Of a stretch of DNA of 64,000 nt, positions 10,227 to 63,758 are shown piece by piece; positions within the stretch are counted from its first letter, which is position 1, and each line of letters opens with the position of its first letter. The notes under the pieces are model-generated. The model had not been told where the DNA came from, did not search any database, and saw nothing but the letters and a program-made list of their open reading frames with translations. The stretch spans positions 5,115 to 69,114 of the forward strand of contig JBMFIF010000002.1 in NCBI GenBank assembly GCA_049976445.1, written 5' to 3'. The position numbers and the translations under genes were made by a program. Origin of the DNA: Thermoprotei archaeon (GTDB lineage Archaea; Thermoproteota; Thermoprotei; Gearchaeales; WAQG01).

Positions 10227-12443
<2,217 letters not shown>

Positions 12444-12476
12444 AAGTATTCTATTTCATTTTATTTAGAAATTATG

Positions 12477-29139: not shown

Positions 29140-30383
29140 ACTTGGTGAATAACTTGAGTGATAGGAATACTCGTTACTTATTAAGTCTAATAATTATAAT
29201 AGTGATAGTACTGGGAGTTACTATACCTCTTTATATGGAAATTAATTCTTTAAGAGATGAAATTTCTAGATTACGTAATGATATATCAGCACTTAGTTTA
29301 AGTTCTAAGCAACTTACCTCACAGTTTAATAGTAGTCTCACACAATTAAATGCAGCTTATAAGAGCCTTGAAGATAGGTATAATAAATTATTTCAACAGT
29401 ATTCATCATTGTCTGAAAGTATTAAGTATCCTTTTACAATTACTGATGCTCTTGGAAGAACTGTAACGATAGTTTCAAGGCCAGTTCGAGTTATAAGTAC
29501 GGCACCTAGTGTGACAGAAATGCTTTTTGCTATAAATGCAGAAAAACTTATTGTAGGTGTTGATAAGTATTCAGATTATCCGCCTACAGTAAAAGATTTA
29601 GTTAAAAATAGTACAATTAAGCTGGTTGGTGGTTTTTCGACTGTTGATGTGGAGGCTATTGTAGCACTAAAGCCTGATATTGTATTTATGACACCGGGCG
29701 TGCAAACACCTTTCGTATATAGGTTAGCAGAACTTGGACTAACCGTCGTCGCTTTAAAGGAAGATAGTATATCGGATGTGTTTGATTCGATAATGCTCGT
29801 AGGGAGAATTCTTGATAAGATTGATGGGGCATTAAACGTTGTCGCATCTATGAAGTCTAAAATCACTTATGCGTTCTCAAAGGTTGAGAATTATATTAAA
29901 TCTGTTAATATTACAAGGGTTAAAGTGTATTGGGAAGTATGGCCTGAACCAATATATACCGTTGGTTCACAAAATTTTATAAATGATATAATTACACTAG
30001 CAGGAGGGGTTAATATTTTTGGTGATATAAAATCAGGCTATCCAGTCGTAAGTTCTGAGGAAGTTATAAACAAAACTCCTGATGTTATAATAACAACTGA
30101 TCATGGTGGGGTTTATGGATCGCCACAGGATGTATTAAATATGATCAGGAATAGAACTGGATGGAATGTAATACCAGCTATAAAAAGTAATAGAGTTTAT
30201 GTGTTAACGGGCCAGTTTGGGTCTATGTTTATAAGGCCTGGTCCAAGAGTTGCAGATGCAATTCTTCAACTTGCCGTAATATTATATCCTGAGGCATTTG
30301 GTATGAGTAAAATCATGATACCGAACATAATAAGCACATCGTTTAACGTTACAACATATATTAGTTTGTTAATTGTTTCATAA
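29127..30383 (+). CDS. ABC transporter substrate-binding protein, class III (BtuF/FecB-like), membrane anchored
   Basis: 418 aa with a TTG start. An N-terminal TM helix and coiled-coil linker precede a periplasmic-binding-protein fold (TAPSVTEMLFAI...IVGVD), and the C-terminus is hydrophobic. Confidence 0.6.
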   Translation: MDYPDLVNNLSDRNTRYLLSLIIIIVIVLGVTIPLYMEINSLRDEISRLRNDISALSLSSKQLTSQFNSSLTQLNAAYKSLEDRYNKLFQQYSSLSESIKYPFTITDALGRTVTIVSRPVRVISTAPSVTEMLFAINAEKLIVGVDKYSDYPPTVKDLVKNSTIKLVGGFSTVDVEAIVALKPDIVFMTPGVQTPFVYRLAELGLTVVALKEDSISDVFDSIMLVGRILDKIDGALNVVASMKSKITYAFSKVENYIKSVNITRVKVYWEVWPEPIYTVGSQNFINDIITLAGGVNIFGDIKSGYPVVSSEEVINKTPDVIITTDHGGVYGSPQDVLNMIRNRTGWNVIPAIKSNRVYVLTGQFGSMFIRPGPRVADAILQLAVILYPEAFGMSKIMIPNIISTSFNVTTYISLLIVS

Positions 30384-31410
30384 TACAATGAGCAGTAATT
30401 ATATACAAAGGAGATATTCCCGCCTTATTTTTTCTGTTATTGTTCTAATCATGTTAGTAGGAGTTTTAAGTATATTATCCATTAGTGTTGGTTCTGCGTT
30501 TATAAATCTGCCGGAATCTTTAAAAGCTTTGGTTGATTCTGATAACGTTGATGTATATACAAGAATTATAATATGGGAGATTAGAGTTCCTAGGACATTA
30601 AGCGCTATTTTTATAGGAATGTTGATGGCTTTAGCTGGGCTTTTTATGCAGACTGTTACTCTGAATCCTCTTGCTGATCCTTATTTAACAGGTATGGCTT
30701 CTGGTGCACTGTTAGGTGTTAGTATAACTATTGTGCTTTCACCTTTAATCGTTAGTCCTTATGTTATAGTTATCTCAGCGTTCTTTGGAGCCTTGTGCGC
30801 CATGATATTAACACTTCTAATTGCAAGTAAATTTCGCTTAGATCCAATAGGACTCATACTGGGAGGTGTTGCAGTCTCTATGATTTTTTACTCATTTTCT
30901 GCGATACTTCAGTTTATTGGAGGTGAAAAGATGGTTATGATAATTATATGGAGTCTTGGAAGCTTGAGTACTGCATCATGGTCAAGAACATGGTTTACTG
31001 GCATTACTGCAATAATTCTTATACCCCTTTCTATAATTATGTACAAATCGTTGAATGCTTTATTACTTGGTGATGAGAATGCACAAAGTATTGGTGTAAG
31101 TCCGAAGTTAACACGATCATTTTCCTTGCTAATATCCTCAATTGCCACGGCAATCTCAGTGTCAATGTTTGGTGTGATAGGCTTTGTTGGATTAGTAGCA
31201 CCTCATTTAGCACGTCTCGCATTAAGGAGCGGTGATCATTTAATAGTCATACCAGTCACATGTCTTGTTGGATCCGCTATCATGCTTTTAAGTGATGTGA
31301 TAGCTAGAATAATAGGTTCTCCTGGAGAATTTCCGTTAACTCCTATAATGAGTTTAATTGGTGCTCCGCTACTTATTTATTTAATGAGTAGGAGGTTTAA
31401 AAATGGTTAA
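30373..31410 (+). CDS. ABC transporter permease, FecCD/BtuC family
   Basis: 345 aa and polytopic with FecCD-type conserved regions. An 11-nt overlap with the upstream gene. Confidence 0.75.
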   Translation: MFHNTMSSNYIQRRYSRLIFSVIVLIMLVGVLSILSISVGSAFINLPESLKALVDSDNVDVYTRIIIWEIRVPRTLSAIFIGMLMALAGLFMQTVTLNPLADPYLTGMASGALLGVSITIVLSPLIVSPYVIVISAFFGALCAMILTLLIASKFRLDPIGLILGGVAVSMIFYSFSAILQFIGGEKMVMIIIWSLGSLSTASWSRTWFTGITAIILIPLSIIMYKSLNALLLGDENAQSIGVSPKLTRSFSLLISSIATAISVSMFGVIGFVGLVAPHLARLALRSGDHLIVIPVTCLVGSAIMLLSDVIARIIGSPGEFPLTPIMSLIGAPLLIYLMSRRFKNG

Positions 31411-32179
31411 ACTAATCATAGATAATCTTTCTGTTAATTATGGTTCAATAAAAGCATTAGAAGATATTAGTATAAAACTTGACAAAGGCATGATGGTATC
31501 AATAATAGGACCTAACGGTTCTGGAAAGACAACACTTCTCAGATCTATAGCAAGAATAGTAAAACCAGTAAAAGGTGTAATCTATATTGATGGAAAAAAT
31601 ACTAACGAACTATCATTAAAAGATCTAGCTCATCATGTATCATACACATCTACATTGAAAGTAAAAGAGGGTTTTGAACTCACAGTGGGCGATATAGTTT
31701 TTATGGGTAGATATCCAAGAACTGGATTTATGATGAGTCATACTGATGAAAGAATTGTGAACGATGTATTAAATAAGTTTCGCATTACTCATTTAATGAA
31801 TAGAAAAATAGATGAGCTTAGCGATGGTGAACGGCAAAAAACCTTTTTAGCAAGAGCCTTAGCTCAAGAATCAGAAATAATACTTGTAGATGAACCATTA
31901 GCGCATCTTGATCTAAAAGCACAACTTGAAGTCTTAAAAATACTTAAAAATGAAGCAAACGATGGAAAGCTTGTAATAATGACCTCACACGAGATAGACT
32001 TACCGATTAAATACAGTGATGTATTAATAGTAATGAAAAAAGGAGAAATATTAGCAGCAGGAAAACCTAATGAAATACTAACAGAAAAAATAATAGAAAA
32101 TGCTTATGGTGTTAAATGTCGTATAATCAAAGATAAAGAATATTCACTTATAGTACTTCTTGACACACTCAGTGATTAG
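31403..32179 (+). CDS. ABC transporter ATP-binding protein (BtuD/FepC-like)
   Basis: 258 aa with Walker A GPNGSGKTT, signature LSDGERQ and Walker B ILVDEP. Confidence 0.75.
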   Translation: MVKLIIDNLSVNYGSIKALEDISIKLDKGMMVSIIGPNGSGKTTLLRSIARIVKPVKGVIYIDGKNTNELSLKDLAHHVSYTSTLKVKEGFELTVGDIVFMGRYPRTGFMMSHTDERIVNDVLNKFRITHLMNRKIDELSDGERQKTFLARALAQESEIILVDEPLAHLDLKAQLEVLKILKNEANDGKLVIMTSHEIDLPIKYSDVLIVMKKGEILAAGKPNEILTEKIIENAYGVKCRIIKDKEYSLIVLLDTLSD

Positions 32180-32181
32180 TA

Positions 32182-33282
32182 ATGAAGGAATTAAAACAAC
32201 CAGTACACGGTGGTAGAGTATGGGATGCAGCAGAAAAACTCAACATAAACGTTGAAAAGATTATAGATTTTAGTACAAATACAAATCCATTAGGACCTCC
32301 AAAACAATTAATAACAACATTAATAAAAAATATTAACACTGTTGCTTATTATCCAGATCCTGACTATAGAACATTAAGGATGGAATTGGCAAGGTTTTAT
32401 AACATTAATGAAGAGAATATTATAGTTGGTAATGGTGCAACTGAACTTATACATCTATTTGCACAAACATTCATCTCAGAAAATGACAGAGTAATAATAC
32501 CAATACCCACGTTTGAAGAATACCAATATGCATCACAGAAAGTTAGCGCAAGAATTATTTATATAAAGTCAAAAAACAATATGCACATAAACATAGACAA
32601 AATAATATCAAAAATGAACAATACAAAGGTCATATTTGTATGTAATCCAAATAACCCAACAGGAATATTAGAAAAACAAGAAGATATACTCAATCTAATA
32701 AAAGAGGCTAATAAGAGAAACGTACTAGTTTTTCTTGATGAAAGCTTTATGGATCTAGTAGTTACAAAAAAGCCGTACACGTTAATAAGATCAGTAAACA
32801 TGTTTGATAATCTTTTTATAATAAGATCACTAACAAAAATCTTCAGCATACCCGGATTAAGGATAGGTTTTGGTGTATCTTCAAAGTACTTAATAAAAGA
32901 ACTTAATAAACATAAAATACCATGGAATGTCTCAACACTTATTGAAAAAACTATTCCAGAAGCACTAAAATATGCAAGACAATATCTAAAAACATCAAGA
33001 AAAATAATCAAACAAGAAAGAAACTATATGATAAGTGAACTATCGAAAATTGATGGTATTAAAGTAATAAGCGGTGATGCTAATTTTCTCTTCATAGATA
33101 TAAGTGAAACTGGACTCACATCATCAGAATTAGCAGATCAATTAATAAAACATCGTATACTAATACGAGATTGTAGCACTTTTACAGGACTGAACAACTC
33201 GTACATAAGAATAGCAATAAAGAAACACCGAGAAAACATACTACTAATAAATGCTCTGAAAACAATAGTGATAAGAAAATGA
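32182..33282 (+). CDS. cobD: class I/II aminotransferase-fold enzyme, probable L-threonine-O-3-phosphate decarboxylase (CobD/CobC-type)
   Basis: 366 aa with the HisC-like PLP lysine region SLTKIFSIPGLRIG. Its position between btuD-like and cbiB favours the cobalamin aminopropanol-arm enzyme. Confidence 0.55.
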   Translation: MKELKQPVHGGRVWDAAEKLNINVEKIIDFSTNTNPLGPPKQLITTLIKNINTVAYYPDPDYRTLRMELARFYNINEENIIVGNGATELIHLFAQTFISENDRVIIPIPTFEEYQYASQKVSARIIYIKSKNNMHINIDKIISKMNNTKVIFVCNPNNPTGILEKQEDILNLIKEANKRNVLVFLDESFMDLVVTKKPYTLIRSVNMFDNLFIIRSLTKIFSIPGLRIGFGVSSKYLIKELNKHKIPWNVSTLIEKTIPEALKYARQYLKTSRKIIKQERNYMISELSKIDGIKVISGDANFLFIDISETGLTSSELADQLIKHRILIRDCSTFTGLNNSYIRIAIKKHRENILLINALKTIVIRK

Positions 33283-34235
33283 ACTCCTTCCACACAAGTA
33301 TAATAATTTTAGTATTAGCAGTACTCATAGATATATTATTTGGAGAACCTCCACTCAAAGTTCATCCAGTAGTTTGGGTTGGTAGATTAATTAAATATTT
33401 GGAACGTTACTGTCATGGAGGAAGCACTCAACTAGAGAAAATTAAAGGTACGATGATGGCTATATCAGTAATTATAATATCCATCACAATAACATACATC
33501 GCTTTAAAAATAGTACAGTCTTATCTCGGTTTATATGGATACATAATAATAGCATCTATAATATTCAAAACAACTTTTTCAATACGATCCATGAAAGATC
33601 ACATAAAACCAATAGCTATCTCGTACGAGAAAAATAATAAAGAAAAGGCCAAAGTATTATTGTCACGAGTCGTAAGAAGAAATCCCTGGCAACTCACTGA
33701 TGAACAAATAATCTCAGCTGCAATAGAGACGACAGCAGAAGGCATAGTAGATGGTATAACATCAGCATTGTTCTATTACAGTATACTTGGAATACCAGGT
33801 GCAATAATGCAACGAGTTATAAACACATTGGACTCAATGGTTGGGTATAAAGATGAATATTATAAGAATGTAGGATGGTTCTCAGCAAAATTAGATACAA
33901 TAATAAACTTTATACCAGCTCGTCTCACAGCAATTACTATAGTACTGGCATCATTAATTTTAAAAAAAGATTATAAATTAAGCTTTAAAATAGCATTAAC
34001 AGACCATAAAAATACTGAAAGTCTTAATGCGGGATGGCCAATGTCAGCAATGGCAGGCGCTCTAAGAATACAACTAGAAAAACCCGGACATTACAAACTT
34101 GGGATTCCAATGCAAAAACTAAAGCCAGAACTCATATACGATGCATTAAACATAATGTATACATCAACAACACTTTTCATAATAACAATAATAATTCCTA
34201 TACTTATTCTCTTTAATATCTACCTATTTTTATAA
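33279..34235 (+). CDS. cbiB: adenosylcobinamide-phosphate synthase CbiB
   Basis: 318-aa membrane protein whose N-terminus, with VHPVVWVGRLI, is typical of the CbiB/CobD family. Confidence 0.7.
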   Translation: MNSFHTSIIILVLAVLIDILFGEPPLKVHPVVWVGRLIKYLERYCHGGSTQLEKIKGTMMAISVIIISITITYIALKIVQSYLGLYGYIIIASIIFKTTFSIRSMKDHIKPIAISYEKNNKEKAKVLLSRVVRRNPWQLTDEQIISAAIETTAEGIVDGITSALFYYSILGIPGAIMQRVINTLDSMVGYKDEYYKNVGWFSAKLDTIINFIPARLTAITIVLASLILKKDYKLSFKIALTDHKNTESLNAGWPMSAMAGALRIQLEKPGHYKLGIPMQKLKPELIYDALNIMYTSTTLFIITIIIPILILFNIYLFL

Positions 34236-34342
34236 TTAAAAAACTTACCAGAAAGCACGTGTTCACAAAATGAAATGATCTGATTTTTCGTTATCATTTA
34301 GTTATTTGCGTTAATTTTAAAATATAAGTTTTATAAATTATT

Positions 34343-35158
34343 TTGATAAAAATGTGGTATTTAGATACTCTAGACCGTAAACCTTTAGGTAGAACAAGAG
34401 AAACTGTACCTGCGATCGGTATTGGAACATGGGCTGTAAGGGACTTTAATAAAGCCGAAACAGCTTTAGTTAAAGCAGTAGAGCTTGGGCTTAATATGAT
34501 AGATACTGCAGAAATGTACCACACAGAAGAACTTGTAGGTAAAGTTATCAAAAAGGTTGGTAAAGAGAACGTTTTCATAACAACTAAACTTTTACCTGAA
34601 CACTTTTCAGATGTTGACAATGCATTAAATGCAGCTAAATTAAGCCTTTCAAGATTAGGAATTAATATTGTCGATTTAATTCTAATACACTGGCCTAGAA
34701 CCTTCACACCCATCGAAAAACAAGTCAGAATACTAGAGGCAATAGCCAACGCAGGGTATTCCAGATACATAGGTGTGAGTAATTTTAATGTTAACCAGCT
34801 TTCAAAAGCAACACAATCAACCAAAAAACATGAAATAGTAGTAAACCAAGTAAAATATAGCGTGTTAGATCGAACAATAGAGGATAACTTATTATTATAT
34901 GCTATAGAGCATGGTATAACAATACAAGCATACACACCATTAGAGAAAGGTAAGGTTTCAAACAATAAAATTTTATCTGAAATAGGTAAAAAATACAATA
35001 AGACACCAACACAAGTAGCATTAAATTATCTTATCTCTAACCCCATGGTGACTGCAATACCAAAAACAGAAAAAATCGAAAGAGTATTAGAATTTAAAGG
35101 ATCATTAGGATGGAGACTTATGAAAGAGGACATAGAATTCATTAAGAGCAAAATTTAA
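34343..35158 (+). CDS. aldo/keto reductase
   Basis: 271 aa. IDTAEMY, LIHWP and GVSNF are AKR family signatures. Confidence 0.75.
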   Translation: MIKMWYLDTLDRKPLGRTRETVPAIGIGTWAVRDFNKAETALVKAVELGLNMIDTAEMYHTEELVGKVIKKVGKENVFITTKLLPEHFSDVDNALNAAKLSLSRLGINIVDLILIHWPRTFTPIEKQVRILEAIANAGYSRYIGVSNFNVNQLSKATQSTKKHEIVVNQVKYSVLDRTIEDNLLLYAIEHGITIQAYTPLEKGKVSNNKILSEIGKKYNKTPTQVALNYLISNPMVTAIPKTEKIERVLEFKGSLGWRLMKEDIEFIKSKI

Positions 35159-35193
35159 CCCTAAAAACCTTTAGCTTATCCAGCTATCCTTTC

Positions 35194-35242
35194 TCTGACC
35201 TCTTCCCCACCCTGAAGGGCGAAGTTTGTCCTTCTTTTATCA
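35194..35242 (-). repeat. full copy of the ~49-nt repeat element (inverted relative to the copies at 26523-26672)
   Basis: Its reverse complement is tgataaaagaaggacaaacttcgcccttcagggtggggaagaggtcaga. The 5' part matches 26523-26563 and the 3' part matches 26646-26672. It lies about 60 nt upstream of cbiZ. Confidence 0.5.
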
Positions 35243-35298
35243 ACGAAGAGTGAAGCTTAAATAAATTTTTCAAATAGAAGAATCGTAAGTGAACAAAA

Positions 35299-36411
35299 AT
35301 GAATAACACTCAAAACGTAAAAATCTATTTTAAAGATAATACACTCATCATCGAATCAGCATCAGAAATGGAAGTACTGAGTAGTGCTGTATTCAATGGT
35401 GGAAGACAAAAAGCACAATATATAATAAACTATAAGGTTTCTAAAACCTTTGATGATCCAAAACCAGCACTATACCTAAAAAATGTAATAGAAAAACTAG
35501 GATTACCTCACGATTCAACAATAGGATTAATGACAGCTGCTGATGTTCACAATGCTTCAATAATTAATGAAGGACCAGTTACAGCAATAATTACTGCAGG
35601 CCTTTCAAATACAGCAACCGCCGGTGATGATATAGCAGTACAAAACATCGGAACGATTAATATGATTATTATAGTAAATGGATTACTAAACGAAAACGCT
35701 TTTGTAGATGCAATAATAACTGCCACAGAAGCAAAAACAGTAGCACTTGATCAATTAGATATTATAAGTAGAGTATCAAGAAAAAGAGCAACAGGAACAA
35801 CAACTGATTCTATAGTAATAGCATGCACACAACAAGGTGAAAGATATGAATATGCAGGCACAGCGACAAAAATAGGTAATATGATAGCTAAAAGTGTCAT
35901 AAAAGGTGTTTTAGAAGCCATAAAACTCCAGGAAAATATAACATCATCTAGACCAATATTAAAAAGATTAGAAGAAAGAGGAATTACACTAAAGGATCTC
36001 GTAGAAACGGGTATGGAACTTTATATACATCACCCAAGCATGGGAACAATAGAGAACGCAAGAAAAACATTAGAAGAAATATTGATAGAATCAATGAATG
36101 ATATAAATGTTGCATCATTAATTATTGCCGGAATAAGGATAGAGGAGGAAGGAAGAAAGGGTTTAATACCTGGTCTTACAAGAGAAGAATTTGAAAAAGA
36201 TCCTGTAAATCTAGTGGCTGATGAGTTAATAGGAATGGCTATAGCTGATTACATAGCAGGTTCAAGAGGTATTTTTGAATATGTCAGGTTTGATAGAATA
36301 AAACCAGGCATTATCAGAAATCTAGGGCCCTTCATGGATGACATAATCGGAGCATTAATAGGTGGAGCGTCATCACTCATGTATACAAAATTACTTAAAA
36401 AACAGAAGTGA
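35299..36411 (+). CDS. cbiZ: CbiZ adenosylcobinamide amidohydrolase fused to a CobZ/PgpA-like alpha-ribazole phosphatase domain
   Basis: 370 aa. The N-terminal ~220 aa is CbiZ-like (ASEMEVLSSAVFNGG). The C-terminal ~140 aa has a PgpA-like GPFMDDIIGALIGG pattern. Confidence 0.55.
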   Translation: MNNTQNVKIYFKDNTLIIESASEMEVLSSAVFNGGRQKAQYIINYKVSKTFDDPKPALYLKNVIEKLGLPHDSTIGLMTAADVHNASIINEGPVTAIITAGLSNTATAGDDIAVQNIGTINMIIIVNGLLNENAFVDAIITATEAKTVALDQLDIISRVSRKRATGTTTDSIVIACTQQGERYEYAGTATKIGNMIAKSVIKGVLEAIKLQENITSSRPILKRLEERGITLKDLVETGMELYIHHPSMGTIENARKTLEEILIESMNDINVASLIIAGIRIEEEGRKGLIPGLTREEFEKDPVNLVADELIGMAIADYIAGSRGIFEYVRFDRIKPGIIRNLGPFMDDIIGALIGGASSLMYTKLLKKQK

Positions 36412-37151
36412 TCAAGTTGATAAAACAATTAAAAGCCCTCTTATCATTTCTTACAATAATACCAGTAAAAGAGGAACACGATCTAAAAACAATTGCAGAA
36501 GGTATACACCTCTTTCCATTGATAGGATTTTTCACCGGAATCCTAACAGGATTTATAGCATACCTTATCTCAAGAGTATACCTAAGTCTTTTAACGGGAA
36601 TAATAGCAGTATCATTCCTGGAATTTATAACAGGACTTCACCATTTTGACGCATTGTTAGATTTTGGTGATGGTATTATGGCTAAAACAACACCAGAAAA
36701 GAAAATAGAAATTATGCATGATAAACAAACAGGAAGCGGCGGATTCTGGTTAGGTATTACAATAATTGGAATAAAAATATTTTCAATATCACAATTACAT
36801 GGATTACAACTCTTTACAGCAATAATTCTTTCAGAAATCTCCGCAAAACTTTCAATGGTAATAGGAATGTGGCTAGGCAACCCAGCTTACCCCTCTAGTA
36901 CAGCAGTACCGTTCATAGAAGAAGCACATAAAAACCCTAAAAAACCATTAATAGCTCTTATATTCTCATTATTCATAGCATTACTCTTCATGACAGAAGG
37001 AATATTAATGATAATTACAAGCATAATAGTGGCAGTAATCATTGAACATCTATCACAAAAACATTTTAAAGGTATAACTGGCGATGTATTGGGATCCATG
37101 GATGAAATAACATCAGCTCTCTCATTATTAGTATTAGTGAGCATAATATGA
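36408..37151 (+). CDS. cobS: cobalamin 5'-phosphate synthase CobS
   Basis: 247-aa membrane protein with an LSFLTIIPV N-terminus typical of CobS. A 4-nt overlap with the upstream gene. Confidence 0.75.
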   Translation: MIKLIKQLKALLSFLTIIPVKEEHDLKTIAEGIHLFPLIGFFTGILTGFIAYLISRVYLSLLTGIIAVSFLEFITGLHHFDALLDFGDGIMAKTTPEKKIEIMHDKQTGSGGFWLGITIIGIKIFSISQLHGLQLFTAIILSEISAKLSMVIGMWLGNPAYPSSTAVPFIEEAHKNPKKPLIALIFSLFIALLFMTEGILMIITSIIVAVIIEHLSQKHFKGITGDVLGSMDEITSALSLLVLVSII

Positions 37152-37768
37152 TAAAAATTAAAGCTCTAATCATGGCAGGAGGAAAAGCAACCAGAATGAA
37201 TAACATAGAAAAACCCCTCATAAAAATATGCGGAACCACAATGATAGAAAGAATACTCAATGCACTAAAGAACACTAAGTGCATAGAAGATGTATATATA
37301 ACAACAAGTAAAAATACGAAAAACACAGAAATCCTACTTAAAACCTTAGGATATAAAACAATAACAACTTCAGGAGAAGATTATGTAGAAGACTTAAAAA
37401 ACACAATTATAAAACTAAACATAAAAGATCCCATATTAGTATTACCATCCGATCTACCATTAATAACACCAAATACAATAGAACAATTAATCAATATTTA
37501 CATACAAAACAACTCTCCACCAACAACGACGTTTTACATACCATTGCAACTACTAAAAACAAAAATACGAACAAACTACATAGAACAAATAAATAATATA
37601 AAAGTAATACCATCTGGCATTAGTATAATAAAAGGATCATACATTACGCAAAATGTAATACCGCAAATAAACATAATAGTCGAAAACACAGAATTAAGCG
37701 TTAACGTGAATACGTTATTAGATATAAAAATTGCACAATCAATTTTATGCAAAAGAAATAATAAGTAG
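37148..37768 (+). CDS. cobY: adenosylcobinamide-phosphate guanylyltransferase CobY (archaeal NTP-transferase type)
   Basis: 206 aa with an MAGGKATRM nucleotidyltransferase G-loop. Last gene of the cbiZ-cobS-cobY operon. Confidence 0.6.
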   Translation: MIKIKALIMAGGKATRMNNIEKPLIKICGTTMIERILNALKNTKCIEDVYITTSKNTKNTEILLKTLGYKTITTSGEDYVEDLKNTIIKLNIKDPILVLPSDLPLITPNTIEQLINIYIQNNSPPTTTFYIPLQLLKTKIRTNYIEQINNIKVIPSGISIIKGSYITQNVIPQINIIVENTELSVNVNTLLDIKIAQSILCKRNNK

Positions 37769-53083: not shown

Positions 53084-54721
53084 ATGATTGATGTAAGATA
53101 TTTAATTAATCAAATGAGCCTTGAAGAAAAAATTGGTAACCTGTTTATGTTTGGTTTTGACAGTACTGATGACAGTAGAGCTGTTACAGAAAGATTAAAA
53201 ATTATTATCGACCAGTATCATGTTGGAGGAATAATTTATTTTTCTAGAAATTTAAAGAGTGCTAAACAAGCTGCTGAACTTTCTAAATCAATACAATCGT
53301 TATCAAGGCGTAACAATTATGTGTTGCCCGTTATCATAGCAACGGATCAAGAAGGTGGTAATGTAGTCAGACTAAGAGATGGCACAATATTTCCTGGTAA
53401 TATGAGTCTTGGTGCTATAGGTTCTAAAAAGATTACTTATGAGGTAGGTCGTATTATTGGTAAGGAATTGATCTCAGTAGGAATAAACATGAACTTGGCA
53501 CCAGTTTTAGATGTGAACACAAATCCTGTAAATCCTGTGATAGGTATTAGATCGTTTGGTGGTGATCCTGAGATGGTCGCATCGTTAGGTGGAGCATACA
53601 TTGAAGGTCTTCATTCTGAAGGTGTACTAGCCGTAGCAAAACATTTTCCAGGACATGGTGACTCATCGTTGGATTCTCATTTGGATCTTCCAATAATAAA
53701 TAAAGATCTTGACGAATTAATGAAGATTCATATAAAACCATTCATGGATGCAATTAGTATGTTTAATGTTGATGCAATAATGACTGCACATGTAGTATAT
53801 CCAGCTCTCGACAAAGAAAATCCTGCAACGCTTTCTAGAAAAATATTAAGAGAATTTTTGCGCGAAAAATTAGGATTCAATGGGGTTATAATGACAGATG
53901 ATATGGAGATGAGAGCAATAAGTGATAGATATGCACCTGGTGATGCTTCTATTAAGGCATTAAAGGCTGGTGCAGACCTCATACTTTTCTCTCATACATA
54001 TTCTAAACAAATTGAGGCTTATAATACTGTTCTTAAGGCAGTAGAAAATGAGTATATTACAAATGATGAGTTAGATGAGAAGGTTAGAAGGATTCTTCAG
54101 CTTAAACTTCGCGTTATAGATCATATGAGTAAAATAGATCCATCGATTGTCGGTAAGAAGGAACATCGTGACTTTGAATTAGAAGTCGCTAGAAAGGCTG
54201 TAACATTGTTAAAAAATAATAATAGAGTATTACCAATTAAAGGTGAACGAGAGGTTATAATTGTTGAACCAAAAATAGGTATTTCATCACAAGTTGAAGA
54301 AAAATATCAACCATTATATTTATCTGAAATACTTAAGAATTATCTTAAAATAAAGAGTGTAGTAGTTAATAAGGATTTAAACGATGATTATTACAGTAAG
54401 TTTTCCAAACTCTTAGAAAGTAATAGTGCTGCTGTATTTTTAATCGTAATTTCGTCTAAAGATGGTGTTGAATTCTTTAATAAAATAGTGCAGAATAATA
54501 ACTATAATAATGATACTGTAGTGGTTCTTTTTAAGAATCCTTTTCTCATAAATTATTTAAATACTAATCGCAGTGATTCAATAATAATAGGATACGCTTA
54601 TACACAGTGTATGATTATTGCAATTAGTGAGCTTATCATAGGAAAAATTAAGCCTAATGGTAAATTGCCAGTTAACTTAAATGAAGAGTATAAAATTGGT
54701 TATGGTATGAGAGATTTTTAG
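53084..54721 (+). CDS. nagZ: GH3 beta-N-acetylglucosaminidase, NagZ-type (two-domain)
   Basis: 545 aa. KHFPGHGDSSLDSH exactly fits the NagZ-specific KH(F/I)PG(H/L)G-x4-D(S/T)H signature with the Asp-His dyad. Confidence 0.75.
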   Translation: MIDVRYLINQMSLEEKIGNLFMFGFDSTDDSRAVTERLKIIIDQYHVGGIIYFSRNLKSAKQAAELSKSIQSLSRRNNYVLPVIIATDQEGGNVVRLRDGTIFPGNMSLGAIGSKKITYEVGRIIGKELISVGINMNLAPVLDVNTNPVNPVIGIRSFGGDPEMVASLGGAYIEGLHSEGVLAVAKHFPGHGDSSLDSHLDLPIINKDLDELMKIHIKPFMDAISMFNVDAIMTAHVVYPALDKENPATLSRKILREFLREKLGFNGVIMTDDMEMRAISDRYAPGDASIKALKAGADLILFSHTYSKQIEAYNTVLKAVENEYITNDELDEKVRRILQLKLRVIDHMSKIDPSIVGKKEHRDFELEVARKAVTLLKNNNRVLPIKGEREVIIVEPKIGISSQVEEKYQPLYLSEILKNYLKIKSVVVNKDLNDDYYSKFSKLLESNSAAVFLIVISSKDGVEFFNKIVQNNNYNNDTVVVLFKNPFLINYLNTNRSDSIIIGYAYTQCMIIAISELIIGKIKPNGKLPVNLNEEYKIGYGMRDF

Positions 54722-54729
54722 GTGATCTA

Positions 54730-55842
54730 ATGGAGTTGTATTATGGAACACCTGAAGAAGCCGGATTAAATAAGGTACGATTAGATAAGATTCATGAGTT
54801 TATGAAAAAATACGTTAATGATGCCTTTCCAGGTGCTGTAATACTTATTGCGCGTAAAAGTGTAATTGCATTTCATGAAGCATATGGCAGCTCACAGATT
54901 ATACCAGTAAAAAGAGAAATGACAAGGGAGACAATATTTGATCTAGCATCTCTTACTAAACCTCTAGCAACATCAATAATAACTATGAGACTAGTTGAAG
55001 ATGGTCTTATAAATCTAAGACAAAAAATTTCAACAATATTTGATGAAATAGGGAAAGATGAAATAAAGCGCGAAATTACATTATGGCATTTGCTCACTCA
55101 CACATCTGGGTTACCTGCATGGGAACCTTTTTACAAAGGCTTTAAAGACAAAAAAGAAATAATTAAAGCTGCACTTAGCGCATTTCCTTCAAGCAAACCC
55201 GGTGAGAAATATACATATAGTGATCTAGGCTATATTATTTTAACTGGTATTGCAGAAGAAGTTTCTGGTAAAACATTTGACAAATTATTCGAAGAATATG
55301 TAGCATCACCATTAAGCCTTAAAGATACAATGTTTAATCCACCGGATTATTTAAAATCCCGCATAGCAGCTACAGAATTATGCGAATGGAGAGGAGAAGT
55401 TTTAGTTGGTTCTGTTCATGATGAGAATGCATATGCAATGGGTGGTGTAAGCGGTCATGCTGGACTTTTCTCAACAGCATTGGATATCGCTAAGATAGCA
55501 CAAATGATGCTTAACGGTGGAATCTATGGATCAAAAGAAATCTTATCTAGATCTTCCGTTCAGATTATGATAAAAAATCATGTTAAAAATTTAGGTGCTG
55601 GTTATGGTTTAGGGTGGATGATAAATAATGCCCCCAATGGAACATCAGCTGGAGATCTGTTTTCTAAAGAATCTTTTGGACATACTGGCTTTACAGGAAC
55701 ATCTCTTTGGGTTGATCCGGAAAAGGAGTTAATAGCAGTTTTACTTACTAATAGAATACATCCCTCAAGACAAAATACAAAACTTATAGAACTAAGACCA
55801 AAAATACATAACCTGATAGCATCAACTTTAACAAGATATTAA
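54730..55842 (+). CDS. beta-lactamase-fold serine hydrolase (class C beta-lactamase / DD-peptidase / esterase family)
   Basis: 370 aa with SLTK (SxxK), YSD (YxN-position) and HTG (KTG-position) motifs. No signal peptide is obvious, so it is probably cytoplasmic. Confidence 0.7.
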   Translation: MELYYGTPEEAGLNKVRLDKIHEFMKKYVNDAFPGAVILIARKSVIAFHEAYGSSQIIPVKREMTRETIFDLASLTKPLATSIITMRLVEDGLINLRQKISTIFDEIGKDEIKREITLWHLLTHTSGLPAWEPFYKGFKDKKEIIKAALSAFPSSKPGEKYTYSDLGYIILTGIAEEVSGKTFDKLFEEYVASPLSLKDTMFNPPDYLKSRIAATELCEWRGEVLVGSVHDENAYAMGGVSGHAGLFSTALDIAKIAQMMLNGGIYGSKEILSRSSVQIMIKNHVKNLGAGYGLGWMINNAPNGTSAGDLFSKESFGHTGFTGTSLWVDPEKELIAVLLTNRIHPSRQNTKLIELRPKIHNLIASTLTRY

Positions 55843-56711: not shown

Positions 56712-57284
56712 TTATTGTACTTTAAATAAAACATCTATGATCTTTTGTATATATTCATAAGGTTGCTCTACGCGTTCAGCAAAATCCATAGAAATAACAT
56801 AATAAAATAAATTTCCAAGGAATATTTTTAAATAAAACTCATCGATCATTTTTCCAGTTAGGTTCTGTATTTTTTCTTTTAATTTGGTATAGTTTGAGTG
56901 ATGAATTTTTTTGAAGGTTTCTTTAATTTCACTGTATCTATTTGCTATTCCTATGGAATAAAGGAAAAGTTTTCTTTCAATGGGGTCATTGTATTTTAGA
57001 ATATATTTTAATGCTAGATCATTAAGCATTTCTTTAACATCATTATAATGTTTTTCTATTACATTGTTTAATACTTCAACTGGTGAAACACTGATAGCAA
57101 TCTCTTTGATTAATTGCTCTTTGCTTGTAAAATATGTATAAAATGTGCCTTTGGAGAGTTTAACTTTTTCCATTATTTCATCTACTGTAGTCAAGTCAAA
57201 ACCTTTTTCAGCGAATATTTGACGTGCAGCCATGATGATTAATTTCTTTTTTTCGTTATTGCTATTCCTCATAATCCTACACAT
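56712..57284 (-). CDS. TetR/AcrR family transcriptional regulator
   Basis: 190 aa. The N-terminal HTH region is ARQIFAEKGFDLTTVDEIMEKVKLSKGTFYTYF. It is divergent from the radical SAM genes. Confidence 0.75.
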   Translation of the reverse strand: MCRIMRNSNNEKKKLIIMAARQIFAEKGFDLTTVDEIMEKVKLSKGTFYTYFTSKEQLIKEIAISVSPVEVLNNVIEKHYNDVKEMLNDLALKYILKYNDPIERKLFLYSIGIANRYSEIKETFKKIHHSNYTKLKEKIQNLTGKMIDEFYLKIFLGNLFYYVISMDFAERVEQPYEYIQKIIDVLFKVQ

Positions 57285-57372
57285 AATTTAGTTCTGCATA
57301 GTTATATACTTTTTGGCTAACTAGTCAGTCAAAAATATAAGTATCTTTAAAGAAATATATAAGTGAGAAATT

Positions 57373-58896
57373 ATGGGTAATACTAATGGTTCGAATTCAA
57401 TGGTTAATGCTATAGAATCATTTAAGGGTATTGTAGATAATCCATTGAGTAAGTATTTATTAAGATATTTAACTGGTTATTGTGAGAAGGATCATGAGAA
57501 TCGGTTAGAGGTTGCTCTTGAACTTTACTTAGGAATTAGGAAAGATGCTTGTTTTTCTTGTCGATCAGCTTCTAAGGTTGTTAGTTACATTGTTAAAAAA
57601 GGTGCAAAGAGTTTTGGAGTTAGTGAGGATCAATTAAAAAGTACTATGAAAGATTCGTATTGGAGAAGAGGTCTTATTAGTGTACTTAAAGGTATAGCAT
57701 TTTTTGGTGTTCGCAAGCCGTTTGTACCAGGGGCTCCGTTTCAAGTCGTATGGAATATAACCAAAGCGTGTAATATGAACTGTTTGCATTGTTATGAAAG
57801 CGCTGGCATAAAGGGTAATGATGAACTCACTTCTGAACAAATTCATCAGGGAATAGATATACTTGCTGATGCTGGCGTAACTATCTTAGCGTTTTCTGGA
57901 GGTGAGCCAACAATACATCCTAATATAGTAGAATTCATTAGTCATGCTCACAATAGGGGAATGTACGTAGCTATTGCTACTAATGGTTATGTTTTAGCCA
58001 ATAAGTATGTTATAAGAAAATTAAAGAGTGCAGGTTTAGGATATGTACAGATTAGTCTAGATGGTCTGAATCCAAACACTCATGACTCATTTAGAAGGGT
58101 GAAGGGTGCTTGGGAACATGCTGTTCGTGCAATAAAAAATAGTATTGAGGAAGGATTATTTGTTGAAGTAGCTACTACTGTTACAAAATACAATATTAAT
58201 GAAATACCTGAAATGATTAAGTTTGTCAGAAATCTTAAAGCTAATTGGTTTATGTTATATAATTTTGTCCCTACAGGGCGTGGGAAAGAGATTATAGAAA
58301 GTGATCTTTCACCGAGAGAACGTTTTGATCTTTTAAAATTAGCCTATTCAGAAACAGGTGATGGTGGTTTGCAAGTGCTTTCCACAGCTCCTCAGTATGC
58401 TGCTGTTGCGCAAATGTTTAATAAGAATGGTAAGAATATAATACCAACTCATTTCTATAATCCTGAATATAATGATCCAAAAATACGTCAGTTAGCAGAA
58501 TTTATTGGTGGTTGTGGTGCTGGGAGGTTTTATATATCGATCGAGCCAAATGGAGACATATATCCATGCGTATTCTTTCCACATGTAGATGAAGTAAAAA
58601 TCGGTAATTTGTTAAAAGATGATTTCGAAAAACTTTGGAGGGAACATGAGTTATTATGGAAATTACGAAATAAGGATATTTTAGAAGGATTCTGTGGTAA
58701 ATGTGCGTTTAGATATACATGTGGGGGGTGTCGAGCTCGTGCATATAATTATTTTGGCAACGTATTAGCACCTGACCCAGGATGCATTTTTAATTCTAAA
58801 GAATGGAATAAATTAAGGTCTGAATTGCTTATTAAATATCATGCAGAGGAAACACCAGCAGGTAATATTCTCATAAGAATAAATGATACACCATGA
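57373..58896 (+). CDS. radical SAM enzyme with C-terminal SPASM domain and ~120-aa N-terminal extension
   Basis: 507 aa with CNMNCLHCY (CxxxCxxC), a SPASM-type [21 protein letters not shown] region and a Cys-rich tail. N-terminal CFSC. Confidence 0.75.
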
Positions 58897-60341
58897 CGCG
58901 CATTATTCTCATAAATCCTATAGATAGAACTCAGATCACTAATAGGCTTGGACTAAAAGCACCACCACTAAATTTAATGTACCTTGCGTCTGCGCTTGAA
59001 AAAGCTGGATTCTATGTTAAAATTATAGATGCTAATCTTTATAATATACTACCGCATCAAATAGCAAGAGTAATAAAAGGGTTTAGACCTGATATTATTG
59101 GTTTAACAGCTGCAACCGCTACCATAAAAACTGCTTTACATTATGTATCAGAAATCAAAAAGGCTATATCAAACGTATTTACCATAATAGGTGGACCTCA
59201 TGTTACTTTTCTTCCAACAGAAACATTGAATATGTCAAAAGATTTAGATGCGGTAGTTATAGGTGAAGGTGAAGAAACCATCGTCAAGATAGCAGAATCT
59301 TATGAAAAAAGTAATCCGGAATGGCTTTCTAACATAAGAGGAGTGGCTTATAGGATAAAAAATCATGATTCAAGTAAAATAAAAATCACACCCCCAAGGC
59401 CTTTTATTAAAAACTTAGATTTAATACCATTCCCGGCTCGTCATTTAGTACCGTTTAACGAATATAAGCTGTACAACAAGGATACACCCATAGGTAGTAT
59501 GATTACAAGTAGGGGTTGCGTTTTTGCATGTAATTATTGTTCATCCTCGCACCTGATGGGAAGAATGTTTCGAGCACGCAGTTCAAAAAATGTAGTTGAT
59601 GAAATCGAAGAATTAGTATACAAATACAATGTTGATACAATCGAATTTATTGATGATATTTTCACTCTAAACAAAAAACGTGCATTAGAGATTGCTAAGG
59701 AAATACGCTCTAGAAAAATTGATATAAACTTTGTTGCATCATCTAGAGTTGATACTATAAACCGTGAATTATTAACAGAATTAAAAAAAGCTGGGCTTTC
59801 AACAATGTATTATGGTGTAGAATCAGGTTCAGAACGCGTTTTAAAATTAATGAATAAAAGAATCACGTTATCACAAGCGGAAAAAGCCATAAATGAAACT
59901 AAAAACATTGGTGTTAGTACACTAGCATCATTCATACTAGGTTATCCAGGTGAAACTCTTAATGAGATGTGGGCCACTATAAAATTCTCTATAAAACTTA
60001 ACCCAGATTATGCACAATTCTCCATACTCACACCATATCCTGGGACACCAATATACTATGAACTTAAACAAAAAGGATTAATCGCTACAGAAGATTGGGA
60101 TAAATACACAGTATTAGACCCAGTTATAGAATATGAAAAATTAGGATTAAGCAAACACATAGTCTCAAAAATGCTCAGAGAAGCATATTTAAGATTTTAT
60201 CTAAGACCAAGATACTTATTAAAACGAATAACAATGTTAAAGGCTCTAATATATACAATGATCAATACTTATATCTTACCTATTTTTCAACACAAAGACT
60301 CATTAGGTTGGTATAAGGACCTAAGCACTCATCACGATTGA
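58893..60341 (+). CDS. B12-binding (class B) radical SAM enzyme
   Basis: 482 aa. An N-terminal cobalamin-binding Rossmann-like domain is followed by the [10 protein letters not shown] radical SAM motif. A 4-nt overlap with the upstream radical SAM gene. Confidence 0.8.
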
Positions 60342-60738: not shown

Positions 60739-62775
60739 TTGAAAATATTACCGTGGATCATTATAGTGATGATCTTAAACTTAATGTTCGTAATGCAAGC
60801 ACCTATTCACGCACAAACGTTACCTCCAAACAGAGCAATAATATTCCCAACACCATTATCACCTGCGGTTGTTTTAGTTGGATCAACATTTAATGTTACA
60901 ATAAATGCGCCTCAAAGTGCATTAAATTGGACAGCCCAAGGATATGGTATTAAACTAGTAAATAATACATTAATATCTTTAAACACGACATTTTACATTA
61001 CCAACACTTATTATAATTCATCAAATAGCCTGTGGATCTTAAGTTTAAACGTACCTGATACTACGATACCCGGACTTTATACGCTTCAGGTTATCTTTCG
61101 TCTCGGTAATTCGATTTTAAAATATGTTCAGGAAAAAAGTGTATGGATTCTTGATAAATGGCCTGATAGGTTACGTATTGCTCAATTTACCGATGTTCAT
61201 ATAGGTGTTCCTGAGGCGATAAGTCTCTTTACTACTGGGATTATTAGTGCTCAACTATTTAATTCAACTGTAGTATTCATAACTGGAGATGATGGTGATA
61301 CTGCGGCTGAATGGCAAGAACTAACTTTTAGGCAGCTTTCATTACTTGCACCCACACTACCAACTTTTGCCATACCTGGAAATCACGATGCTAGAACAAC
61401 AGCCTATGATGATTATGTAGGGCCTCGTCAATACTTCACAAACTTAGGAAAATTCCTTGTAATAGGAATAGATACAGGTGAAAATGGAGCTATATCTTAT
61501 AACACACTACGATGGATGCAACAAGTACTAATGTTATATGGCGATAATAAAGTCAAAATACTCCTTATGCATCATCCCTTATTCAGTACCAAAGTACAAG
61601 GTTATCTCAGCACATCATTATCAAACGTTTCAACATCAATGCTATATTATAGCTGGGCTGCTAACCCTGACATCGCCAAGGCTCTTCTCAAGACTATAGA
61701 AGACTTTAACATCACATTAATCTTAGCTGGCCATGTGCACACAGACAGAATTGTTGTAGTAAATTCAACAGTAACAAAATCACTACACTGGTTTATAACC
61801 ACTACAACAACAGGAGAAGGAAGGCCTGAATATAATGGTTTTAGAATAATTGACATAGATAAAGAAGGCCATGTTAACATACCTTTCATGCCTCCATGGG
61901 GAAAAATCGAACAATATCCGAATAGTATTCCTATAGATAAAACATGGTCACAAGGATACTTAGATGCAAGACTCATATATAATAATAAAAAAATAGTAGT
62001 AACAGTTAACATTACTAATGCTCTAACTTACGTTAATTTAAATTCTGTAATAATACTTAACTCAAACAGTAGTGTTACGTTATCAAACTATAAAACATAT
62101 ACTAACTCTTATGGATCAAGCGCTTCAGCAACATTATTAAGCAGTACAAGTATTGCAGGATTAAACTATTATGCAGTAAAAATAAACGTTCCATCAAGAA
62201 GTGGTATAAGAATAACATTAGCACCATATGATGATACTGATGTACCAACAGGAAAAATAGTATACACATTACCACTTCAACCAGAACCTAATGCCCCAAT
62301 ATCGGTATACATACAAGCATCCGATACAGGCTGGGGTATCTTGAGAGTATATGCAGAATATTTATATCAAAATAAAGAAACTGTTATCGAATCAACATAT
62401 GAACAACCATACTATAAGATAACATTACCAGGATTTCCACCTGGAACAGTTATTAATATTACAATAAAAATTACTGATGTTGCAGGTCATGCTACAACAT
62501 TGACCCTGCCCATAAACTTCGGCATCATATCTACTACATCTACTACGACGTTAACCCTAACTACTACGACCACAACATCAACTACATCAAAAACCACTAC
62601 AACAATCACAACGACCACTACAACTATAACCACCACGAGTACACCATTATTAACAACCACTACAGAGACCTTAATAACGACCAGCCCAGTTAGTATTATT
62701 AATCCATTAACCGTTATAATAATAGCCATAGTAATAGGAGTGATACTATTTGTTATAATTGTCAGACGTAAATAA
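60739..62775 (+). CDS. surface-anchored calcineurin-like metallophosphoesterase with Thr-rich stalk
   Basis: 678 aa. It has a TTG/ATG-proximal signal peptide, GNHD and GHVHTD phosphoesterase motifs, a ~60-aa Thr/Ser-rich linker and a C-terminal TM helix followed by RRK. Confidence 0.65.
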   Translation: MKILPWIIIVMILNLMFVMQAPIHAQTLPPNRAIIFPTPLSPAVVLVGSTFNVTINAPQSALNWTAQGYGIKLVNNTLISLNTTFYITNTYYNSSNSLWILSLNVPDTTIPGLYTLQVIFRLGNSILKYVQEKSVWILDKWPDRLRIAQFTDVHIGVPEAISLFTTGIISAQLFNSTVVFITGDDGDTAAEWQELTFRQLSLLAPTLPTFAIPGNHDARTTAYDDYVGPRQYFTNLGKFLVIGIDTGENGAISYNTLRWMQQVLMLYGDNKVKILLMHHPLFSTKVQGYLSTSLSNVSTSMLYYSWAANPDIAKALLKTIEDFNITLILAGHVHTDRIVVVNSTVTKSLHWFITTTTTGEGRPEYNGFRIIDIDKEGHVNIPFMPPWGKIEQYPNSIPIDKTWSQGYLDARLIYNNKKIVVTVNITNALTYVNLNSVIILNSNSSVTLSNYKTYTNSYGSSASATLLSSTSIAGLNYYAVKINVPSRSGIRITLAPYDDTDVPTGKIVYTLPLQPEPNAPISVYIQASDTGWGILRVYAEYLYQNKETVIESTYEQPYYKITLPGFPPGTVINITIKITDVAGHATTLTLPINFGIISTTSTTTLTLTTTTTTSTTSKTTTTITTTTTTITTTSTPLLTTTTETLITTSPVSIINPLTVIIIAIVIGVILFVIIVRRK

Positions 62776-62804: not shown

Positions 62805-63758
62805 TTAAATTATTTTACTAAGAATCATTCCAATAATATAAAAAATACCGAAGAGTAAAGTAAATTTAGATGTTTGTGGTGCAGCAGTATTTGGAATTTG
62901 TTTTGAAAAGCGTTTTATAAGGCTTATTAATTTTGGAAGTGTTAAGAAGATTATAAGTGATGGAATTCCCAAAATGTTAATGATAATGAACAATATAACT
63001 AAAATGAGCGGTGATGTTACTAATATATAGTATAATTTTAATGCATTTTGTTTTCCAATAAGGATTGGTAGTGTCTTTATATTTGAAGATTTATCATATT
63101 CATAATCTCTTATTCCATCAATTAATAATACAGCTGCTACGAGTAATCCTATTGGGAATGAGATTAAAATTGGTTTGAAGGAGATTATTCCGGTTTGTGC
63201 ATAATAAGAACCTAAGAATATTAATGGTCCCCATACTATAAACACGGCTAGCTCTCCTAATCCTTTATACTTGTATTTTAATGGTGGACCAGTGTATTCT
63301 AACGATATTAATGCACCGATCAAGCCTAAAAATAAGATTAAAGGTCTTCTTAAGAGGTATAAAGAAAATCCTGCTAAGACTGCTACAAAAAAGTATCCTA
63401 TTGATATTTTAAGCGTGTGGTGCGGTTTAAAGATGCCTGATATTATAGGATGTGGTCTGTATCTTGTGGTTGGGGCATCGGGCTTATCTACCCCATAAAG
63501 AGTATCAAAATAGTCGTTTATTACATTCGTATAAGCGTGCAGTGAAATAGCACCTATTAAAGTAATTAGATAAATAATTGGATTAAAGATGTTAAGTTCA
63601 TAATAAGCATAAGCAATTCCTGATGTTACGGATGCGATTGTCATAAGGAAACTCCAAGGCCTAGTTATATACACTACATTTATAATAAATTTCCAAAGAT
63701 TATTAAAAGAACTTGGCATTATCATCACTTCTTTACAACAATATAGGAAAAATGACAA
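62805..63758 (-). CDS. UbiA-family aromatic/isoprenoid prenyltransferase
   Basis: A polytopic protein with the first Asp-rich motif NVINDYFDTLYGVDKPD. The start is probably at the internal MIMPSS. Confidence 0.7.
   Translation of the reverse strand: MSFFLYCCKEVMIMPSSFNNLWKFIINVVYITRPWSFLMTIASVTSGIAYAYYELNIFNPIIYLITLIGAISLHAYTNVINDYFDTLYGVDKPDAPTTRYRPHPIISGIFKPHHTLKISIGYFFVAVLAGFSLYLLRRPLILFLGLIGALISLEYTGPPLKYKYKGLGELAVFIVWGPLIFLGSYYAQTGIISFKPILISFPIGLLVAAVLLIDGIRDYEYDKSSNIKTLPILIGKQNALKLYYILVTSPLILVILFIIINILGIPSLIIFLTLPKLISLIKRFSKQIPNTAAPQTSKFTLLFGIFYIIGMILSKII

Follow-up and report, generated by a model that had tools for sequence, protein, structure and literature searches.

The 64,000-nucleotide stretch analysed here (the window), from a contig of a Thermoprotei archaeon (JBMFIF010000002.1), carries a cassette of three open reading frames (ORFs): a TetR-family gene on the minus strand and, divergently on the plus strand, a gene for a radical S-adenosylmethionine (SAM) enzyme with a SPASM domain, followed by one for a cobalamin (B12)-binding radical SAM enzyme. 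This cassette is probably a gms-gmm operon, whose products would first cross-link and then methylate tetraether lipids under a dedicated TetR-type repressor. By sequence and architecture, the 507-aa SPASM enzyme is a full-length homologue of Gms, the synthase of glycerol monoalkyl glycerol tetraethers (GMGTs). Described in 2024, the Gms-Gmm system has already been reported in Thermoprotei and Nitrososphaerota, and the cassette is thus not a new kind of pathway; a dedicated TetR/operator pair and a cysteine motif in the N-terminal domain of the SPASM enzyme are its modest additions. The features of the cassette are the following (window coordinates):

56712-57284, minus strand: TetR-family regulator, 190 aa as called, with Pfam TetR_N at residues 16-62 (59.8 bits)
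57310-57335, unstranded: 26-bp near-palindrome with the arms TTTTTGGCTAACT and AGTCAGTCAAAAA, candidate TetR operator in the 88-bp divergent region
57373-58896, plus strand: gms-like radical SAM/SPASM gene, 507 aa, with Pfam Radical_SAM at residues 128-285 and SPASM at 381-444
57373-57738, plus strand: Gms-specific N-terminal helical (COG4001-type) domain, residues ~1-122
57481-57561, plus strand: N-domain motif Cys37-x2-Asp40 ... Cys60-x2-Cys63, possible extra metal site
58893-58896, plus strand: ATGA overlap of the gms stop and gmm start codons, translational coupling
58893-60341, plus strand: gmm-like cobalamin-binding (class B) radical SAM gene, 482 aa, with Pfam B12-binding at residues 16-133 and Radical_SAM at 203-365
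60228-60287, plus strand: C-terminal amphipathic/hydrophobic helix of the B12 enzyme, residues ~446-465, a helix in the structure model and possible peripheral membrane anchor

The three ORFs, with their coordinates, their domain types and the divergent orientation of the TetR gene, had been named in a first-pass annotation made from the letters of the window, and all of them are borne out by the ORF list and by Pfam. The same is true of two details of the enzyme genes, namely their 4-nt overlap and the N-terminal extension of about 120 residues in the 507-aa protein, which is real, since the Radical_SAM domain starts only at residue 128. That annotation read the pair as candidates for enzymes like Tes and Grs of glycerol dialkyl glycerol tetraether (GDGT) biosynthesis or, alternatively, for peptide maturases. 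A tetraether-modifying radical SAM pair is retained in kind, while the names Tes/GDGT-MAS and GrsA/B give way to Gms and Gmm, which the two proteins match instead.

Gms resembles AhbD, sharing 36% identity with that of M. barkeri, and is a SPASM enzyme in which an N-terminal COG4001 domain of about 100 residues forms a lipid pocket, and its gene often clusters with a B12-radical SAM gene whose product was shown to be the GMGT methylase Gmm (PMC11214058, 2024). In the biochemically characterised enzyme of M. okinawensis (MoGms), a six-helix N-domain comes first, then the radical SAM domain, then a bridging hairpin and finally the SPASM domain, with C123/C127, C370/C372 and C438 as cluster ligands (PMC11186832, 2024). 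Comparisons were made with proxies in place of MoGms and of Tg-Gms from T. guaymasensis themselves: a Methanococci protein (L058) and one from Thermococcus sp. (L036). Numbered from its MKTDD start, L058 carries C123, C127, C130, F326, S334, N351, C370, C372 and C438, which are the positions published for MoGms. The window enzyme aligns with L058 from end to end (residues 17-479) at 41% identity (352 bits, E 4e-121) and with L036 at 44% (409 bits, E 1e-142), the two references being only 47% identical to each other; through these proxies, its E values fall within the published search threshold for Gms (E ≤ 1e-80 to Tg-Gms, at least 400 aa). The CX3CX2C motif (C133/C137/C140) and the GGE motif (FSGGEPT, 174-180) are invariant in 24 homologues, and the seven SPASM cysteines (C381, C399, C441, C444, C450, C453 and C471; Pfam SPASM 42 bits) are kept in nearly all of 84. 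Relative to C123, C370 and C438 of MoGms, the cysteines of the window enzyme are offset by +10 to +12.

Scanning species-representative genomes with the family alignment gave a sample of at least 80 gms loci, drawn from every archaeal superphylum and from several bacterial phyla, which mirrors the published distribution of Gms (PMC11214058). Over their full length, N-terminal extension included, both window enzymes are 55-69% identical to proteins of Methanobacteriaceae, Methanomicrobia, Thermoplasmata, Nitrososphaeria and Bathyarchaeia, and the matches suggest that many homologues of the two share contigs. In a neighbour-joining tree with 200 bootstraps, the clade of the window enzyme groups with Nitrososphaerales (0.97) and Methanobacteriaceae (1.00) and joins the Methanococci type (0.74) before that of Thermococcus (0.90), with the bacterial homologues outside. 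No NCBIfam model reaches its cutoff with the SPASM enzyme, the best scores being 248 bits for NirJ2 and 241 bits for AhbD, each with a cutoff of 500; across the AhbD, AhbC and NirJ models, the cutoffs lie between 500 and 650, and the alignment with the AhbD models begins only at residue ~121. The first-pass annotation had held that AhbD or NirJ as top characterised homologues would speak against a lipid role. Taken literally, these are indeed the top curated families; the lipid reading stands because characterised-type Gms proteins show the same sub-threshold profile, so that the resemblance, a known property of Gms, is a trait of the family and no counter-argument. As a separate observation, one Gms homologue, P0399 (956 aa), is interrupted by a LAGLIDADG intein inside its radical SAM domain.

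The N-terminal extension points in the same direction as the full-length comparison. Its first 125 residues alone are homologous to the N-domains of L036 (E 3.5e-19) and L058 (E 1e-15), and in an AlphaFold2 (AF2) model the domain is built of six helices (7-22, 24-33, 44-53, 61-80, 85-91 and 95-111), the number also published for MoGms. The domain has only 91 representatives in a set of 1.84 billion proteins and stands at the N-terminus in almost every one; by this measure of sequence it is essentially restricted to the Gms family. A further architecture was seen in P0428 (583 aa), in which a Gms-type N-domain (302-406) and a radical SAM domain (411-561) are preceded, in the same polypeptide, by a UbiA prenyltransferase domain (35-235); as a Rosetta-stone fusion, it would tie the Gms family to membrane isoprenoid enzymes.

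The B12 partner contains a B12-binding domain (89 bits) and a Radical_SAM domain (94 bits) by Pfam, with a CX3CX2C motif at C209/C213/C216, and its AF2 model has a cobalamin domain of Rossmann type, a barrel for the radical SAM part and, at the C-terminus, a long amphipathic helix. The top Foldseek matches are to cobalamin-dependent radical SAM enzymes, for the most part C-methylases (MgmA, TsrM, TokK and CysS), together with the non-methylases AprD4 and OxsB; no close solved structure was found for either of the two window enzymes. Among the NCBIfam models, BchE (244 bits, cutoff 481) and HpnJ score best, none of them above its cutoff. The protein is 58-59% identical to B12-radical SAM proteins of M. 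subterraneum, a species reported to have gmm (PMC11214058). The highest hydropathy window is centred at residues 455-457, within the C-terminal helix, and 17 partners share a conserved (Y/F)YxRP motif and, behind it, a basic/hydrophobic tail. Published criteria for Gmm are an E value of at most 1e-65 to Tg-Gmm and a place in clades A-C (Gmm1), apart from MoeK5. The most likely activity of the partner would be that of a C-methylase of GMGT alkyl chains.

This assignment draws on gene linkage as well as on domain content. A homologous B12 partner adjoins gms in at least 13 of 80 sampled loci, a lower bound because several contigs end just past gms. The partner-bearing loci come from Nitrososphaerales, Methanobacteriaceae, Archaeoglobi, Alkanophaga, Thorarchaeota, Thaumarchaeota, Thermoproteus, Desulfurococcales, Methanobacteriota and Methanomicrobia, and are thus largely from the lineages with reported gms-gmm clusters, which are Nitrososphaerota, Thermoprotei, Thorarchaeota and thermophilic methanogens/Methanobacteria (PMC11214058). 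Over 17 loci, the identity of the partner to the window B12 protein tracks the identity of Gms with r = 0.98, and gms and its B12 partner have therefore diverged in step. The whole cassette, TetR gene included, is found in three relatives (L081, L082 and L083; Gms identity 84-91%), L081 having the same ATGA overlap (10001-10004). The flanking genes in these loci are unlike those of the window: a PBP4-family peptidase and IS605 copies in L081, a cation-efflux gene and another radical SAM gene in L082/L083. With the partner beside the SPASM gene in distant archaeal phyla, and the cassette kept despite different flanks, the arrangement exceeds chance.

In L081, L082 and L083, the TetR gene (65-85% identity) likewise lies upstream of the enzyme pair in divergent orientation. 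The start of the window gene may be Met5, at 57272, which would fit the 183-188 aa of its relatives and the position of the TATA-like box. No close characterised relative of the protein was found, the best PDB match scoring 40 bits and FadR of S. acidocaldarius (6el2) 25 bits. The palindrome in the divergent region has arms of 13 nt each, 85% complementary and without a spacer. Its core, CTAACTAGTCAGTCAAAAATATA, is the same in the window and all three relatives, where the surrounding intergenic DNA has diverged, and this 16-mer occurs once in the window at up to three mismatches. TATA-like boxes, read by eye, flank the palindrome on both sides (tetR, 57302-57308, minus strand; gms, 57331-57340), and a palindrome between two such boxes is the standard layout for an autoregulated TetR repressor. 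A scan for bacterial-type promoters and terminators was uninformative, with fewer matches than in shuffled sequences and no terminators.

In the Gms literature searched, no native transcription factor for gms was found reported. The related methylase genes cgm and pgm adjoin amphiphile-responsive MarR regulators, and methylation is induced by amphiphiles, hexanoate and penicillin G being named (2025 preprint); for this reason, a TetR switch released by a ligand is plausible, and we infer one here. In Methanobrevibacter acididurans DSM 15163, a TetR-family gene (L010:7158-7835, minus strand) also lies divergently, 165 bp upstream of a gms with no gmm adjacent. Only the helix-turn-helix of its product aligns with the window TetR (37% over 51 residues), and the two proteins are unrelated. 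This sequence comparison suggests an independent recruitment of a TetR upstream of gms, which in turn suggests that cross-linking is a regulated response, like the methylation of GDGTs, for which this was recently shown under amphiphile stress.

Taken together, the proposed mechanism would run as follows. Gms, as a three-cluster radical SAM/SPASM enzyme whose extra N-terminal helical domain would form a lipid pocket, is predicted to cross-link membrane-spanning tetraether lipids. With methylcobalamin and a 5'-deoxyadenosyl radical, the Gmm-family partner would then place between one and three methyl groups on the alkyl chain that has been cross-linked, presumably at the membrane surface by means of its C-terminal amphipathic helix. 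The TetR protein would bind the 26-bp palindrome between both TATA boxes, repressing both its own gene and gms-gmm, until a hydrophobic or amphiphilic ligand frees it, so that membrane stress would turn on both cross-linking and methylation.

Other explanations of the enzyme pair have been weighed against this one. The closest to it keeps the lipid setting and changes the B12 chemistry, to Cgm- or Pgm-like methylation of unbridged or cyclised GDGTs, to Ted-type desaturation or to Grs-type cyclisation. Such changes have precedents, as Cgm, Pgm and Ted activities have arisen by divergence among Gmm homologues at 31-40% identity, one third of the gmm-bearing genomes are without gms (PMC11214058), and non-methylases are among the structural neighbours of the window protein. 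Against them stand the ATGA coupling to gms and the co-divergence with Gms, as well as the preference for GMGT of Tg-Gmm, which comes from the gms cluster of T. guaymasensis (PMC11214058). Moreover, Ted goes with grs and hgs and not with gms, and searches for Cgm homologues in the literature demanded more than 495 aa, where the window protein has 482. A different B12 chemistry is thus judged unlikely. A tetrapyrrole pathway, in which AhbD/NirJ-like and BchE-like enzymes would act on haem, sirohaem or a related cofactor, is suggested by the best curated matches (NirJ2, AhbD and BchE) and by the cobalamin salvage locus in the window; nevertheless, these scores are about half of the curated cutoffs and have their equal in characterised-type Gms, the stretch left unaligned by the AhbD models is occupied by an additional, Gms-specific domain, and neither in the window nor in L081 or L082/L083 does the cassette have further haem or sirohaem genes in its flanks, all of which makes this explanation very improbable.

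The pair of Tes (tetraether synthase) and Grs (ring synthase), which was the primary reading of the first-pass annotation, has in its favour that both are radical SAM lipid enzymes, Tes with SPASM-like auxiliary clusters and Grs, as that annotation rightly had it, with B12 binding (PMC11214058). It is scarcely credible in view of the similarity to GDGT-MAS (7tol), which is confined to the radical SAM core (53.6 bits at residues 128-327 only; Foldseek TMq 0.36 over ~224 columns) and is far exceeded by the full-length Gms-type matches, and of the mere 24 bits (E 0.012) between the B12 enzyme and the product of a 539-aa radical SAM gene beside Thermococcus gms, presumptively grs, going by how the cluster was described in print, and used as proxy for Saci_1585/Saci_0240. 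Equally hard to believe is the maturation of an unrecognised precursor by a SPASM maturase and a B12 C-methyltransferase, as in the biosynthesis of ribosomally synthesised and post-translationally modified peptides (RiPPs). SPASM and class B radical SAM enzymes are commonly RiPP maturases, MftC, AlbA, ApyD and rSAM_ocin_1 appear among the sub-threshold matches, and SkfB and SuiB among the top Foldseek ones. Every RiPP-maturase NCBIfam model, PqqE included, on the other hand scores far under its cutoff, the N-domain is the lipid-pocket domain of Gms, and the flanks hold no conserved small ORF, their annotated neighbours including no precursor, peptidase, exporter/transporter or leader-binding RRE domain. 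That no precursor-peptide ORF is evident in the flanks had been noted before, and holds, as the downstream gap contains no more than a 20-aa and a 31-aa ORF, both starting with TTG.

Several points weigh against the gms-gmm reading itself and temper it. The AF2 models are of moderate quality (mean confidence, pLDDT, of 73 for Gms and 71 for the B12 enzyme), with the bridging-hairpin region of Gms poorly predicted. The Gms tree is a neighbour-joining one, rooted on bacterial homologues and built without AhbD sequences, so that it approximates by proxy only the published tree-based criteria, which include separation from an AhbD outgroup within the clade of all known GMGT producers. The N-domain cysteine motif is absent from L058 and L036, the proxies examined for the characterised M. 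okinawensis and Thermococcus types. Methylation specific to GMGT is deduced from gene linkage, because Gmm homologues are functionally diverse (Gmm, Cgm, Pgm and Ted). Conservation of the palindrome comes from effectively two or three independent sequences, and it is from sequence that we infer the most likely binding of TetR to it, the sense of the regulation and the ligand. Finally, neither tes nor grs is found within the 64 kb of the window.

The cysteine motif deserves separate consideration. C37-x2-D40 ... C60-x2-C63 is invariant in the 24 homologues of at least 55% identity and present in every homologue that is at least 48% identical. Among 81 sampled family members it occurs in 41, as Cys3Asp in 27, as Cys4 in 11 and as Cys3 with another residue in three, and is missing from the remaining 40; Cys3Asp is the form of the window clade, and Cys4, with cysteine at position 40, that of Archaeoglobi and Methanobrevibacter. 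In the AF2 model, C37 and D40 sit on a short beta-hairpin and C60 and C63 at the N-terminus of helix 4, a modelled placement whose geometry would be typical of structural, treble-clef-like metal sites. No mention of the motif was found in the Gms literature searched. A bolder proposal, tentative and on balance doubtful, is that the motif forms a fourth metal centre and defines a distinct Gms subclass and that, jointly with this, the window cassette is a TetR-inducible module for hardening the membrane. If that were true, the centre would be functionally analogous to the rubredoxin-like iron of Tes, about half of the family, including Methanobacteriaceae and Archaeoglobi, would form a mechanistically distinct subclass, and a TetR sensing amphiphiles or lipid intermediates would turn on the enzyme pair in the lineage of the window. 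In any case, an N-terminal cysteine motif in half of the family bears on the current mechanistic comparison between Gms and Tes.

Regarding the neighbourhood of the cassette, the first-pass annotation had pointed to a UbiA prenyltransferase downstream and to a cobalamin salvage locus. The former is confirmed as a UbiA/MenA-like gene (62805-63758, minus strand) 2.46 kb from the cassette; the latter is present as well, at 29127-37768, and neither is tied to the cassette. As parts of the module both were rejected, because the cassette occurs without them, in another neighbourhood, in L082/L083. The cobalamin locus is a complete cobinamide salvage cluster of the archaeal type, comprising a BtuF/C/D-like ABC importer, a class I/II aminotransferase (CobD-type), CbiB, CbiZ, CobS and a CobY-like nucleotidyltransferase, with the CbiZ gene (35299-36411) fused to a PgpA/CobZ-like phosphatase domain. 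Between the cassette and the UbiA gene lies a gene (60739-62775) for a 678-aa calcineurin-like phosphoesterase, which is probably surface-anchored because of its N-terminal signal/transmembrane segment, long Thr-rich stalk and C-terminal transmembrane anchor; in L081, too, it keeps synteny with the UbiA gene, and it is not part of the cassette. In this closest relative, IS605/TnpB (OrfB) elements flank the cassette (1-396, 3065-3814 and 11669-12823), one of them sitting between gmm and the Metallophos gene that in the window directly follows gmm. In L082/L083, gmm is followed by a third radical SAM gene, of 310 aa (L082:8652-9584), with no counterpart in the window.

On the other side, about 1.4 kb from the TetR gene, the window encodes a GH3 glycosidase and a serine beta-lactamase-fold protein (53084-55842), and in L081 a Peptidase_S13 (PBP4-family) gene (L081:6187-7548) abuts the TetR gene. 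Set beside the induction of tetraether methylation by penicillin G in S. acidocaldarius, these beta-lactamase-fold and PBP4-type neighbours may be a coincidence, given the different neighbours in L082. Elsewhere, the window contains a Cdv cell-division locus (497-3511) with Vps4/CdvC at 1496-2638, a marker of TACK archaea, as well as topoisomerase VI. Its asparaginyl-tRNA synthetase (AsnRS; 6232-7563) is closest to those of non-ammonia-oxidising Nitrososphaerota/Aigarchaeota, at 55-58% identity with one match at 88%, the lineage being poorly sampled. A claim of horizontal transfer was dropped, the host placement from AsnRS being ambiguous beside an identical Gms that carries the label Thermoprotei archaeon.

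GMGTs and their methylated forms serve as environmental and palaeotemperature markers, and it therefore matters to know which organisms produce them. To the likely producers of methylated GMGTs, the cassette adds a poorly sampled, low-GC TACK lineage from hot springs, and for gms it supplies a candidate pair of TetR and operator.

Compared with the known systems, the SPASM enzyme has its references in Gms (alias Hbs) of M. okinawensis (METOK_RS04425), T. guaymasensis (WP_062369926.1), T. celer (A3L02_02305) and P. furiosus (PF0647), with which it shares the four-part architecture of a six-helix N-domain, a CX3CX2C core, a bridging region and a SPASM domain whose seven cysteines would serve two auxiliary [4Fe-4S] clusters. 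Unlike the characterised types, it falls into a distinct subclade, shared with Nitrososphaerales, Methanobacteriaceae, Bathyarchaeia and Archaeoglobi, and bears the CxxD/C...CxxC motif in its N-domain; unlike MoGms, it has an alanine (A383) at the position of C372, and its gene lies under a TetR regulator. The B12 enzyme resembles Tg-Gmm from T. guaymasensis in its class B architecture and in the place of its gene beside gms, a likeness of architecture and context, and differs in the translational coupling of its gene to gms by the 4-nt overlap. Cgm (Saci_1785), Pgm (T. aggregans) and Ted (Bathyarchaeota B1_G15) are also B12-radical SAM enzymes and Gmm homologues that act on tetraether alkyl chains, and Saci_1785 is predicted to be peripherally membrane-bound through its C-terminus (preprint). 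In contrast to the window gene, those for Cgm, Pgm and Ted are not linked to gms, Ted is a desaturase, and the type of regulator is MarR and not TetR. AhbD and NirJ are the closest curated families for the radical SAM and SPASM core of the window enzyme, whereas AhbD is without the N-domain of about 120 residues and acts on haem instead of a lipid. Finally, Tes/GDGT-MAS (MJ0619, 7tol) forms C(sp3)-C(sp3) bonds between isoprenoid chains by means of auxiliary clusters, and a similar mechanism has been proposed for Gms (PMC11186832; 2026 review); the similarity of Tes in sequence and fold is at the level of the core, and it has a rubredoxin-like iron site, unlike Gms, which has no rubredoxin domain (2026 review).

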